From positions 192,001-256,000 of the forward strand of contig CAWGZR010000005.1 in NCBI GenBank assembly GCA_963827165.1: DNA of 64,000 bases, read 5' to 3'. The position numbers and the translations under genes are program-made. Below are positions 7,260 through 10,727 of this stretch, piece by piece (position 1 is the stretch's first letter; every line of letters starts with the position of its first letter). The DNA comes from Candidatus Bathyarchaeota archaeon. GTDB lineage: Archaea; Thermoproteota; Bathyarchaeia; Bathyarchaeales; Bathycorpusculaceae. The notes beneath the pieces are model-generated. The model was not told the origin of the DNA. It saw only the letters and a list, made by a program, of their open reading frames with translations, and ran no database searches.

Positions 7260-7727
7260 TCAATTCTTAAGTGCGCCATGGCGCACCTTAACAGCTACCC
7301 CGCTCTTGAACGCCTTCATTTCCACGCTTGAAAGCATAGCCTTCCCGACGGCCAAAACTGTCCCGTTTTCATCGACGACAATTGCTTCGTCACTCGCGCG
7401 GATCTCAGGATCTACCTCAGTTACGTGCACTGCGAAAACATCTCCGCCCTCAGCAATATATTTTGAGACATCATTTTTCACGGTTACAAAACAATGGGCA
7501 AAGACAACGTTTTCAGCAATGAATTGGGCAGCTTTGACGCTTAGTGAAAGCAAGCCGTCGGTGGGTCGAAGGGTCGCGAGTCTGTTCCCGCCCAAGTTGA
7601 TGAATCGGATTCTTCCGGTTTTTGGAGAATGTTCGGTCTGTACATTTTCTGGAAACAGCTTTGTGCCTACGCCTTTTCCAAATTGGTAGTCGGCGATGGC
7701 TCTTATTTTCGCAAGCTCGTTCTCCAA
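7260..7727 (-). CDS. PUA-domain RNA-binding protein (TGT C-terminal-like)
   Basis: IADYQFG, TGRIR, GDVFAVHV, GVAVKVR. Confidence 0.9.
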   Translation of the reverse strand: MENELAKIRAIADYQFGKGVGTKLFPENVQTEHSPKTGRIRFINLGGNRLATLRPTDGLLSLSVKAAQFIAENVVFAHCFVTVKNDVSKYIAEGGDVFAVHVTEVDPEIRASDEAIVVDENGTVLAVGKAMLSSVEMKAFKSGVAVKVRHGALKN

Positions 7728-7813: not shown

Positions 7814-8341
7814 TTGAGATGCGAGGTCTGCGGACACAAAATCCATACAGAACCGGTAACTGCGATAATTGAAGGCGCACGGCTGACCGTTTGCGTAGAA
7901 TGCGCAAAACATGGAAAAATAGTCCACCAAGAAGAAGTAGCCCTTCCAAAGCCCACTCAGAAGAAAACTCTGGTGCCAATGGCCGTGATGCAGAAGAAAC
8001 CCGCGGTTGTCAGCGTACAGATAACTCAGGAACTAACTCAAGACTACGCGAATAAAATTAGGGTTGCTCGTGAGAAACTGGGGTTAACCCATGACGAACT
8101 GGGTAAAAAAATCAACGAGAAAGCGTCAGTTTTAAGAAACCTTGAAACGGGCAAGATGGAGCCGAACAACCAGTTGGCCTCAAAGCTTGAGCACATGTTA
8201 AAAATCAAGCTGCTTATCCCGATCTCAGAAGAAAAAGCCAATCAGATTCCCAAATCCGCCAACCAAGAGTTAACGTTGGGCGACCTTATCGAGATAGATG
8301 AGAAAGACGCGGAGGCGGCTACTAAACGAAAGCCGTCATAG
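7814..8341 (+). CDS. mbf1: Archaeal multiprotein bridging factor 1 (Zn ribbon + HTH)
   Basis: CEVCG...VCVEC Zn ribbon, IRVAREKLG HTH, LTLGD; likely TTG start 7814 after AGGTGA. Confidence 0.93.
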   Translation: MRCEVCGHKIHTEPVTAIIEGARLTVCVECAKHGKIVHQEEVALPKPTQKKTLVPMAVMQKKPAVVSVQITQELTQDYANKIRVAREKLGLTHDELGKKINEKASVLRNLETGKMEPNNQLASKLEHMLKIKLLIPISEEKANQIPKSANQELTLGDLIEIDEKDAEAATKRKPS

Positions 8342-9597
8342 TTCAGCGTCGCCTGAACCGTGAAGAATCAAGTTTACCTGAACTCAAAAGATTGGCGGAA
8401 TCCGCAGGGTACTTCGTAGTTGCTGAAATGGAACAGACGCGATTGCCCGACTCGCGCTATCAGATAGGTGCTGGAAAGGTTGAAGAGCTTGCGCAGATGG
8501 TGCAGGAAACCGGCGCGGGCAAGGTTATTTTTGATAATCAACTGAAAACTCGTCAAACATACAATTTGGCAAAAGCCACTCATATAGAAGTCATTGACCG
8601 CTTTCAGCTAATTCTTGAAATCTTCACTAGAAGAGCAACAACAACGGAAGCCCAACTTCAGATTCAACTGGCAACCTTGCGAAATGAACTTAAACATTCG
8701 AAGGAAAAAGTTAGGTTAGCCAAAGGCAGCGAGCAACCGGGCTTTATGGGTCTTGGAGCCTATGAAGCAGACGTCTACAGCGACGCAATAAAACGGCAGG
8801 TTCAAACAATCAGCAAGAAACTGACTAGAATCAGGGAAAAAAGAGTCTTGCATCGAGAAAGGCGAACGGAGCTGGGCTTTTTGACTATTTCACTAGCAGG
8901 GTACACCAAATCTGGGAAAAGCTCTTTGTTCAATGCCTTAACGGAAGCAACCACCGTAGTCGACAAAGCGTTGTTCACTACCCTATCAACAACAACTAGG
9001 ATAATGGAGTTTTCTAATCGCAAGTTTCTCCTCACAGATACGGTTGGCTTCATTGACCGTTTACCCTTGTCTTTAATTGAAGCGTTCCACTCTACTTTGG
9101 AAGAAACAATCTTTTCAGACCTAATAATTCTGCTTCTGGACTTAAGCGAGCCAATGGACAAAATAGAGAAAAAATACAACGTGTGCCTAGAAACAATCGA
9201 CCGTTTGGGTGCATCGGGAATTCCAACCATAACCGCCTTGAACAAGATCGACTTGATCAGTGAGGAAGAAAGAACCCAAAAACTCGACGCCCTTAAAGAC
9301 AAAACCAGGAACCCAATTCTTCTCTCTGCAAAGTGCCAAACAAACCTTGATTTGTTGAGGGCGAGAATACTGAAAATGCTTGAAAACTACGTTCAAGCTC
9401 AGTTTTCTGTACCGTTAAGCGACAAGACAATGCCTTTTATATCGTGGGTTCACGGGAAAACAGACGTTAGAAATGAAAAGTTCACTAATGATTCAGTTGA
9501 AGTGGTCTTCGAGGCTACCCCTGAGATAGCGGATCATGTGAGAAGAAAAGTGGAAGAATTAAATGGCAGATTCGAAACCAACCCAAAACCCAAGTAG
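8326..9597 (+). CDS. hflX: Ribosome-splitting GTPase HflX
   Basis: GYTKSGKS, TTLSTT, DTVGF, NKID; HflX-like sequence extends upstream of the called TTG (8392) to ACG at 8326 (xKAVIVQRR...ELKRLAESAGY). Confidence 0.93.
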   Translation, partial: TKAVIVQRRLNREESSLPELKRLAESAGYFVVAEMEQTRLPDSRYQIGAGKVEELAQMVQETGAGKVIFDNQLKTRQTYNLAKATHIEVIDRFQLILEIFTRRATTTEAQLQIQLATLRNELKHSKEKVRLAKGSEQPGFMGLGAYEADVYSDAIKRQVQTISKKLTRIREKRVLHRERRTELGFLTISLAGYTKSGKSSLFNALTEATTVVDKALFTTLSTTTRIMEFSNRKFLLTDTVGFIDRLPLSLIEAFHSTLEETIFSDLIILLLDLSEPMDKIEKKYNVCLETIDRLGASGIPTITALNKIDLISEEERTQKLDALKDKTRNPILLSAKCQTNLDLLRARILKMLENYVQAQFSVPLSDKTMPFISWVHGKTDVRNEKFTNDSVEVVFEATPEIADHVRRKVEELNGRFETNPKPK

Positions 9598-10147
9598 CAC
9601 ACCTCAAGTTGTCGTGTTAAGGTGGGGTCATAGACCGCAACGAGATGTGCGATTAACCACTCATGTAGCCTTAACATCAAGAGCTCTGTGTGCTTCTGGC
9701 TTCATTCTTTCAGACGTGAGAGATCCAAATATAGAAGAAACAGTGCGAAAGATAACTGAACATTGGGGCGGAACGTTTCAGTTCGAAATGGGAACTCCTT
9801 GGAAAAAAGCTGTCCGCGACTGGAAAGCTAAAGGCGGCGCAATAGTTCACTTAACAGCTTATGGGGAAAACATTCAGGCAAGCGATGTGTTGAGCAGGAT
9901 TAAGAGCTTAGGCAGAGACATCTTGATTATTGTTGGTAGCCAGAAGGTTCCAGGCGACTTCTATTCAAGCGAAGTATCAGATTTCAATGTCTCGATTGGG
10001 AATCAGCCGCATTCTGAGTGCGCTGCTCTCGCTATCTTTCTCGATCGTTTCTTTTCAGGTGAAGAGTTAACTGTGGATTTTGAGAAAGCCAAAATGAGGA
10101 TTGTTCCAAAAGCGAGGGGAAAAGAGATCAAAAATGATGGTGAATAA
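9563..10147 (+). CDS. trm56: tRNA (cytidine-56-2'-O)-methyltransferase aTrm56
   Basis: GHRPQRDVRLTTHVAL, VHLTAYG, GNQPHSE. Confidence 0.95.
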   Translation: MADSKPTQNPSSTPQVVVLRWGHRPQRDVRLTTHVALTSRALCASGFILSDVRDPNIEETVRKITEHWGGTFQFEMGTPWKKAVRDWKAKGGAIVHLTAYGENIQASDVLSRIKSLGRDILIIVGSQKVPGDFYSSEVSDFNVSIGNQPHSECAALAIFLDRFFSGEELTVDFEKAKMRIVPKARGKEIKNDGE

Positions 10148-10214: not shown

Positions 10215-10727
10215 ATGTTATCGACTATTGATGATGCAACCTTGATGAAAGTTGCGGTAGCATTGGGAGAGGAAGACGCTGTCAAACTTATTGAGTACCT
10301 CAAAGGCGTAGACGAGATAACTGATGATGAAATTGCCAACAAAATAGGCATCCGCCTCAACACAGTACGCAAAATCCTCTACAAACTCTACGATCATTCT
10401 CTTGTGAGCCTAAGAAGAACACGCGATCCCAAAACTGGCTGGTTCATTTTCCACTGGAAGCTACAACCCGACCAGCTTGAAGGTTTTATATTAAGCCAGA
10501 AAAGGCGCGTGCTTGAAAAACTCAGCGTAAGATTAGAATACGAAAAGAACCATGACTTCTATTACTGCGGCAGTCCCGAATGCAAACGGGTTCCTTTTGA
10601 AGAAGCTGTCGAAGTGGTTTTCCACTGCTCAGGCTGCGGCAAACCTCTTGTGCATTTTGCAAATGAACTAATGATAAATAAGCTTTCAGAGAAAGTTGAG
10701 ACGCTAAGGAAGGAACTCGGTGAGTGA
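10215..10727 (+). CDS. tfe: Transcription factor E alpha
   Basis: Winged helix VRKILYKLYD...GWFIFHW; Zn ribbon YYCGSPEC...FHCSGCG. Confidence 0.95.
   Translation: MLSTIDDATLMKVAVALGEEDAVKLIEYLKGVDEITDDEIANKIGIRLNTVRKILYKLYDHSLVSLRRTRDPKTGWFIFHWKLQPDQLEGFILSQKRRVLEKLSVRLEYEKNHDFYYCGSPECKRVPFEEAVEVVFHCSGCGKPLVHFANELMINKLSEKVETLRKELGE

Follow-up and report, generated by a model that had tools for sequence, protein, structure and literature searches.

An ACG codon as the probable translation start of hflX at an overlapping mbf1-hflX junction in Bathyarchaeia

The window analysed herein is a stretch of 64,000 nucleotides (nt) from the genome of a soil Bathyarchaeia archaeon (assembly GCA_963827165.1, contig CAWGZR010000005.1, positions 192,001 to 256,000), and our subject is the junction in it between two co-directional genes, mbf1 and hflX, the second of which has no ordinary start codon. 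The source genome (G000) is 94.5% complete. A first-pass annotation of this DNA, made from the sequence alone, had drawn attention to the junction and offered two readings of it, initiation of hflX at an ACG codon or a recoding switch in which a -1 frameshift yields an MBF1-HflX fusion. The positions it gave for a GGAGG, a TAA, the ACG, and the mbf1 frame, together with the -1 relation of the two frames, were all exact on recheck. The features of the junction are as follows.

7814 to 8341, plus strand: mbf1 (aMBF1), coding for a zinc ribbon plus a helix-turn-helix (HTH), with a TTG start at 7814 behind GGTGA and a TAG stop at 8339-8341
8311 to 8315, plus strand: GGAGG, the Shine-Dalgarno (SD) site of hflX, within the coding tail of mbf1
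8323 to 8325, plus strand: TAA in the hflX frame, directly before the ACG, barring an N-terminal extension in this genome
8326 to 8328, plus strand: ACG, the proposed initiation codon of hflX
8326 to 8332, plus strand: A_CGA_AAG in the mbf1 frame, the same heptamer as the -1 shift site of Bacillus subtilis cdd
8326 to 9597, plus strand: the proposed hflX coding sequence, 423 codons plus TAG, overlapping mbf1 by 16 nt
8392 to 8394, plus strand: TTG, codon 23, the first canonical in-frame start of hflX and the one expected from a gene caller

At the junction, the mbf1 frame reads ACT AAA CGA AAG CCG TCA TAG, and the hflX frame is -1 relative to it, each hflX codon beginning one base earlier. From the upstream TAA until the TTG at 8392, which lies 22 codons past the ACG, the hflX frame contains no ATG, GTG, or TTG; the earlier statement that hflX lacks a canonical start before codon 23 is therefore borne out by inspection of the frame. 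Judged from its profile matches, the sequence from the ACG onward is genuine HflX. The predicted product matches the NCBIfam equivalog TIGR03156 (GTPase HflX) at 1.9e-84 and 283.6 bits (cut-off 216.75), with positions 3-350 of the 351 in the profile aligned to residues 4-351, and profile position 1 corresponds to residue 2, just after the ACG. It also carries the Pfam domains GTP-bdg_N (from residue 14), GTP-bdg_M, and MMR_HSR1, and HflX chains in the PDB match it down to 3e-51, the solved chains having 16-20 residues before the aligned part. The upstream gene is equally recognizable. Its product matches NCBIfam TIGR00270 (aMBF1) at 2.9e-42 and 144.2 bits (cut-off 110) over residues 1-160 of 174, Pfam HTH_3 is matched as well, and a CxxC...CxxC pattern is visible in the translation. 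The last ~13 residues of MBF1, which are encoded by the SD and overlap region, lie outside the TIGR00270 profile.

The GGAGG pairs with the 3' end of the 16 S ribosomal (r)RNA, ...GATCACCTCCT (also given as ...CACCTCCT and ...GGATCACCTCCT), and is separated from the ACG by a spacer of 10 nt. This spacing is a usual one in the genome, where GGAGG precedes the first canonical start of long open reading frames (ORFs) with spacers of 7, 8, 9, and 10 nt in 17, 18, 15, and 15 cases, respectively, and with any other spacing in 7 cases or fewer. A candidate start-site hairpin at 8312-8338, with the ACG in its loop and part of the SD region paired with 8332-8338, was rejected as not significant (z -1.47; 17 of 200 shuffles were as good).

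For comparison, 74 loci were gathered, and removal of four identical duplicates left 70 distinct loci that were treated as belonging to the same Bathyarchaeia order. Loci L001-L030 come from the same genus or order and L055-L074 are labelled as same family or order, while L031-L054 are named metagenome-assembled genomes of unlabelled kinship with HflX proteins 75-93% identical. The codon aligned with the hflX ACG is ACG in 62 of the 70 loci, ATG in one (L072), ACA in three, and ATT, ACC, ATA, and ACT in one each. With 16.5% of Thr codons in long ORFs of the genome, ACG is the one least used for Thr, and its recurrence at 62 of 70 loci therefore goes beyond chance. Between the upstream in-frame stop and the aligned codon, 68 of the 70 loci have no canonical start, the exceptions being L012 (with a frame-broken mbf1) and L064. 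The TAA directly before the ACG is not a conserved feature; in relatives, the upstream in-frame stop lies 1 to 104 codons away.

Along with the codon, its distance from the SD site is maintained. A GGAGG stands exactly 10 nt upstream of the aligned codon in 62 of the 70 loci, so that a comparison of SD spacing proposed at first pass came out in favor of a functional site. The GGAGG covers three mbf1 codons, and the residue that precedes Glu there may be Ala, Gly, Glu, Ser, Thr, Leu, or Lys. Because the bases are kept while the MBF1 residues vary, and because this tail falls outside the aMBF1 profile, the pattern points to selection on the RNA, rather than on MBF1, as what maintains the GGAGG.

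The single ATG is instructive. Loci L072 and L027 belong to the same genus and have near-identical flanks, and they differ at this codon only in that L072 has ATG and L027 has ACG. In L072, the ATG makes the junction a classic ATGA overlap, and MBF1 loses four residues. The first-pass annotation had cautioned that one base change would give just such a stop/start overlap, and this form thus occurs naturally, in one of 70 loci and not in most relatives. The same possibility, that a C-to-T change would restore ATGA, speaks for an error in sequencing or assembly or for a gene that died recently. Such an origin is refuted by the comparison and has next to no chance of being correct, for the same codon is found in 62 distinct loci from many assemblies, all 423 codons of hflX stay open and conserved in relatives, and contigs assembled separately from a public run, which may be of the source sample, match the window exactly over 8180-9600. 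The public-run data used here were Logan contigs, among which contig X2 has a gap at 8163-8350.

Where ACG has been lost, the replacements are informative as well. In five (L021, L026, L030, L068, and L074) of the seven loci with neither ACG nor ATG, an ATA or ATT occupies the position or adjoins it, an outcome that neither conservation of Thr nor C-to-U editing would predict. Editing of the mRNA from ACG to AUG, as in plant organelles, followed by canonical initiation, deserves to be weighed since ACG is the near-cognate codon that a single C-to-U change turns into AUG, and since ACG is also the codon enriched genome-wide in the scan described below. The relatives without ACG, however, have ATA, ATT, or ATC at or beside the position, none of which can be edited to AUG by C-to-U changes. 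We know of no mRNA editing in archaea, and regard this explanation as very improbable.

A further rival to the ACG is a start elsewhere in the frame. The TTG at 8392 is the first canonical codon and would give an N-terminally truncated protein, and the ATA at 8338 is a near-cognate codon. In the first 30 loci, however, the distance from the ACG to the next canonical start ranges from 3 to 140 codons, so the position of that start is not conserved, while the protein upstream of TTG 8392 is conserved and HflX profiles match from residue 2-4. A start at TTG 8392 would lose the first strand and positions 1-9 of the GTP-bdg_N profile. As to the ATA, it lies 22 nt from the GGAGG, and some relatives have TTA or CTA at position 5. 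Initiation at either codon in place of the ACG thus seems quite improbable.

Beyond the order, the start of hflX is usually ordinary. Of 13 loci that represent other orders of the class and have mbf1 upstream, 11 carry ATG, GTG, or TTG at or just before the same strand; the remaining two have ACG (L087) and GGAGG-N7/N10-ATC ATC (L080). Elsewhere in the phylum, 60 loci were sampled; 29 of them have mbf1 upstream of hflX, and in 56 a canonical start just precedes the first strand. Two of the others have non-canonical candidates behind an SD site, namely ATA 9 nt after AGGAGG (L182) and CTG 10 nt after GGAGGT (L228), and two (L176 and L177) have no clear start candidate. The ATA and the CTG suggest that hflX gained weak starts more than once, with the reservation that the background rate of such starts in those genomes has no baseline.

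Taken together, these comparisons lead us to conclude, at a probability of about 0.85, that hflX in this archaeon stands as a gene of its own and that its translation begins at ACG 8326. The ACG is favored by the lack of a canonical start, by a GGAGG that pairs with 16 S rRNA at the usual spacing, and by the conservation of both codon and spacing; it is favored further by the ATG that a sister species and other orders carry at this codon, and by ACG starts elsewhere in the genome. Of the two readings offered at first pass, it is ACG initiation that gains from the conserved codon and SD spacing, whereas the recoding switch does not hold up as the conserved mechanism.

The case for a programmed -1 frameshift at A_CGA_AAG, stimulated by the GGAGG and with an MBF1-HflX fusion as the selected route to HflX, begins with a striking resemblance. 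A_CGA_AAG is the -1 frameshift site of B. subtilis cdd according to a review (PMC5009743), and the first-pass identification of a cdd-type site, a heptamer with an upstream SD, agrees with that text. The window has the exact cdd heptamer in the mbf1 frame and an SD-like GGAGG ending 11 nt before the CGA, and as in cdd, the heptamer lies in the frame of the upstream gene, an SD-like sequence precedes it, and the downstream frame is -1. Moreover, in 47 of the 70 loci the heptamer is readable in frame by ribosomes on mbf1, ahead of the mbf1 stop codon. Unlike a programmed site, though, the heptamer, the frame relation, and the possibility of reading through all vary among relatives, while the ACG and SD are conserved. 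The other 23 loci have no usable heptamer. Relative to the A of the ACG, the mbf1 stop lies 13 nt after it in 48 loci and 10 nt after it in four, but in 10 loci it precedes the codon by 2 nt, as TAACG (compare TAATG), and one locus has ATGA. In L064, L065, L071, and L073, mbf1 is in the other frame, yet these loci keep a GGAGG at 10 or 12 nt and, behind it, the ACG, or ACT in the case of L071. Codon 2 is AGA, AGG, or CGG in several loci, which removes the slippery A_AAG but keeps the ACG and GGAGG.

Further observations weigh on the same side. Other orders have a separate HflX with an ordinary ATG start. A downstream stimulatory structure was not found, the segment 8333-8430 folding like its shuffles (z 0.18), and frameshifting in B. 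subtilis cdd itself is termed incidental in PMC5009743. The annotation had also aptly warned that the cdd mechanism uses an inosine-34 tRNA that archaea generally lack, and no gene for tRNA-Arg(ACG) was found among the 41 tRNAs of the genome. The heptamer needs no special explanation, for it arises automatically whenever ACG is followed by AAA and the G of an Ala codon, and AAA accounts for 67.6% of Lys codons in long ORFs of this genome. We therefore judge A_CGA_AAG to be a by-product of ACG-AAA-G(CN). Since no more than 47 of 70 loci have a usable heptamer, with mbf1 stopping earlier in 10 and lying in the other frame in four, we conclude from these alignments that a programmed -1 fusion is not the conserved mechanism, and as the selected route to HflX it has a very slim chance. 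The conservation of CGA-AAG across relatives, which the annotation had proposed to look for, is accordingly partial, and the -1 relation of the frames is not constant. In loci that keep A_CGA_AAG, a trace of MBF1-HflX fusion might be made in addition to the separate protein.

If hflX is initiated on its own, the simplest view of the junction is that the two genes overlap and are probably coupled. In the window, 13 nt separate the start from the later mbf1 stop, and the relatives have the TAACG or ATGA overlap (10 and one of 70 loci, respectively), which makes coupling of the two genes probable. Termination-reinitiation couples overlapping gene pairs of the ATGA or TGATG type in archaea and bacteria (PMC6728339). 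The mbf1-hflX pair resembles these in its co-directional stop/start overlap; it differs in that the overlap in the window is 16 nt and the restart codon is ACG, and coupling is here suggested by gene layout. Ribosomes finishing mbf1 would probably feed initiation of hflX, and this coupling would give a fixed, low ratio of HflX to MBF1.

A genome-wide scan supports the use of ACG beyond this gene. In-frame codons between the upstream stop and the first canonical start were collected for ORFs of at least 120 codons, 44,795 codons in all, and a GGAGG was found 7-10 nt upstream of 113 of them. Among these 113, ACG occurs 13 times against 1.32 expected, the highest ratio of all codons; the next codons behind GGAGG are GCT (7 versus 1.96 expected) and ATC (6 versus 2.0). 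At control spacings, ACG makes up 3 of 223. As far as sequence can tell, the scan shows ACG behaving as a start codon elsewhere in this genome. Products among the candidates include a family-B DNA polymerase, a terminase large subunit, an HtrA-like protease, a cohesin-domain protein, a LysE-type translocator, and P-loop paralogues. The following candidates have the GGAGG 7-10 nt before the ACG, the last three lines being paralogues.

G000:C4:209885-212173, ACG candidate
G000:C5:26892-28127, ACG candidate
G000:C3:79463-80662, ACG candidate
G000:C5:658159-659868, ACG candidate
G000:C3:215388-216017, ACG candidate
G000:C13:1927-2361, ACG candidate
G000:C5:330458-331135, paralogous ACG candidate
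G000:C10:405130-405528, paralogous ACG candidate
G000:C12:76271-76948, paralogous ACG candidate

Two more candidates could be followed through relatives. In the gene for a ferredoxin-reductase-like subunit (DHODB_Fe-S_bind; G000:C5:158548-159384; L122, with relatives L140-L169), ACG occupies the Met position in 15 of 30 loci, mostly 10 nt behind a GGAGG, and the other loci have ATG (11), GTG (one), or TTG (two), with one unaligned. In the gene for a tetrapyrrole methylase (TP_methylase; G000:C9:50582-51403; L123 and L127-L139), GGAGG-N9-ACG is conserved in all 12 aligned loci, and the Pfam domain begins at residue 32, while the first canonical start is at residue 45. Among the 12 candidates other than hflX, Pfam gave a decisive N-terminal overhang for this gene only. 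The TP_methylase gene was nevertheless not counted as a clear ACG start and is ambiguous, for the site overlaps the end of the upstream gene and an ATG or TTG lies two codons upstream in seven loci.

A standard initiator tRNA is present in the genome, with A1:U72, the GGG/CCC anticodon stem, and the anticodon CAT. A special initiator tRNA for ACG was considered and rejected: among the 41 tRNA genes, the only one with a CGT anticodon is an ordinary elongator-type tRNA-Thr. The initiation factor aIF1 is also encoded. The ordinary initiator tRNA (anticodon CAU) would thus read the ACG with a mismatch at the middle base, and the protein would be expected to begin with Met; the strong SD site would offset the weakness of the codon.

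Initiation of this kind has precedents. In E. coli, an ACG start codon gives a protein with an N-terminal Met (10.1101/063800), and the hflX case is alike in that the codon is one base off AUG, lies behind an SD, and would be read by the initiator tRNA to give an N-terminal Met. The AUU start of bacterial infC is a further case of this kind. The hflX start is unlike the bacterial cases in that the ACG is natural, is kept throughout an archaeal order, and is met again in other genes, and in that archaea use aIF1, aIF1A, and aIF2, not IF3. Eukaryotic initiation at ACG and CUG, as treated in PMC4705826, is similar in that Met-tRNAi pairs with ACG through a middle-base mismatch and factors of the e/aIF1 type set the stringency; there, however, initiation involves scanning and Kozak context, whereas the hflX codon appears to be placed by an SD 10 nt upstream within an overlapping gene. 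For archaea, a 2020 review gives AUG, GUG, and UUG as start codons, and the string "ACG" does not occur in it at all (PMC7531240). Ribosome profiling of H. volcanii found ~30% of putative alternative start sites to be near-cognate, and these were set aside (PMC7261190). Our literature search, which covered papers without their supplements, turned up none that treats ACG as a start codon in archaea or Bathyarchaeota, though ACG sites may be listed in Supplementary Figure S8 of PMC7261190. Near-cognate initiation is thus a known mechanism, and what would be new is a conserved, SD-placed ACG start in archaea, unpublished as far as our searches reach.

Several points weigh against initiation at the ACG or reduce the force of the evidence for it. 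Most of the loci come from one genus or family and hence are not independent, and L070 and L071 have no clear near-cognate codon. Part of the conservation of the ACG could stem from mbf1, since its G is the middle base of an mbf1 Arg codon in the 48 loci with the stop 13 nt downstream. Some incidental frameshifting may take place in the 47 of 70 loci that have the exact cdd heptamer. The 13 ACG candidates of the scan include hflX itself, three are paralogues, and one, the TP_methylase gene, is ambiguous. RNA-library contigs (X17 and X18) cover parts of mbf1 and hflX and have no coverage between 8262 and 8584. The factor aIF1, which is encoded here, rejects AUU in Sulfolobus (PMC4705826), and our literature search found no experimental proof of archaeal ACG initiation.

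The bacterial gene infC, which codes for IF3, uses an AUU start, and in both infC and hflX a weak start stands on a gene for a translation factor. The weak ACG might likewise be a regulatory device and more than a defect that is tolerated, with the output of HflX, a ribosome-splitting factor that acts in ribosome rescue, set by the SD, by ribosomes terminating on mbf1, and by the stringency of aIF1, and rising with a loss of initiation fidelity or a change in the flow of ribosomes along mbf1. The ATA, CTG, and ATC starts of hflX in separate lineages of the phylum would fit selection for a weak hflX start. We consider such regulation unlikely on balance, and autoregulation of the infC type serves here as an analogy only; if it were true, the hflX ACG would be the archaeal counterpart of the AUU-based feedback on bacterial infC.

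Textbooks and reviews allow archaea three start codons, AUG, GUG, and UUG. Given an ACG start kept throughout an order, positioned by an SD, and found again in at least 10 other gene families of the genome, genes of Bathyarchaeia would be cut short or overlooked systematically by standard gene callers, and this is one of the most abundant groups of uncultured archaea in soils and sediments. If the ACG is indeed read as a start, the eukaryote-like initiation machinery of archaea tolerates a middle-base mismatch in vivo, and weak starts may set the dose of factors for translation quality control.

The genes on either side of the pair are as follows.

7260 to 7727, minus strand: protein with archaeosine-TGT-like C2 and PUA domains, the divergent upstream gene (Pfam TGT_C2 9.9e-25, PUA 8.4e-18)
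9563 to 10147, plus strand: aTrm56 tRNA 2'-O-methyltransferase, with an ATG start (Pfam Trm56 1.8e-44)
10215 to 10727, plus strand: TFE alpha, transcription factor E (Pfam TFIIE_alpha 4e-18)

The ATG of aTrm56 lies 35 nt inside the end of hflX (9563-9597), and mbf1, hflX, and trm56 thereby form a chain of overlapping genes. In Crenarchaeota, the neighborhood of mbf1 comprises hflX, tgt, tfe, pan, tfb, and rpoG (PMC3062615); the window similarly groups a tgt-like gene, mbf1, hflX, and tfe, while the available part of that paper is silent on the junction and the start codon.

A few minor observations remain. ARAGORN called one tRNA-SeC(tca) in the genome, which may be a false call. Distant homologues of HflX (~33% identity) occur in open frames of 608-666 codons, much longer than HflX and with no mbf1 upstream, in G063, G078, G115, G117, G120, G123, G136, G139, G145, G147, G150, G156, and G159 (families f24/f21); ATG codons stand just ahead of the HflX part in two of these loci (L102 and L109). 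The start of mbf1 itself, at the codon before the conserved RCEVCG, is TTG in 48, ATG in nine, and GTG in seven loci, making up 64 of 67 distinct loci. The other three have no canonical codon at the aligned start: L020 has an ACG one codon upstream, behind GGTGA, and L027 and L072 have an ATA one codon upstream.

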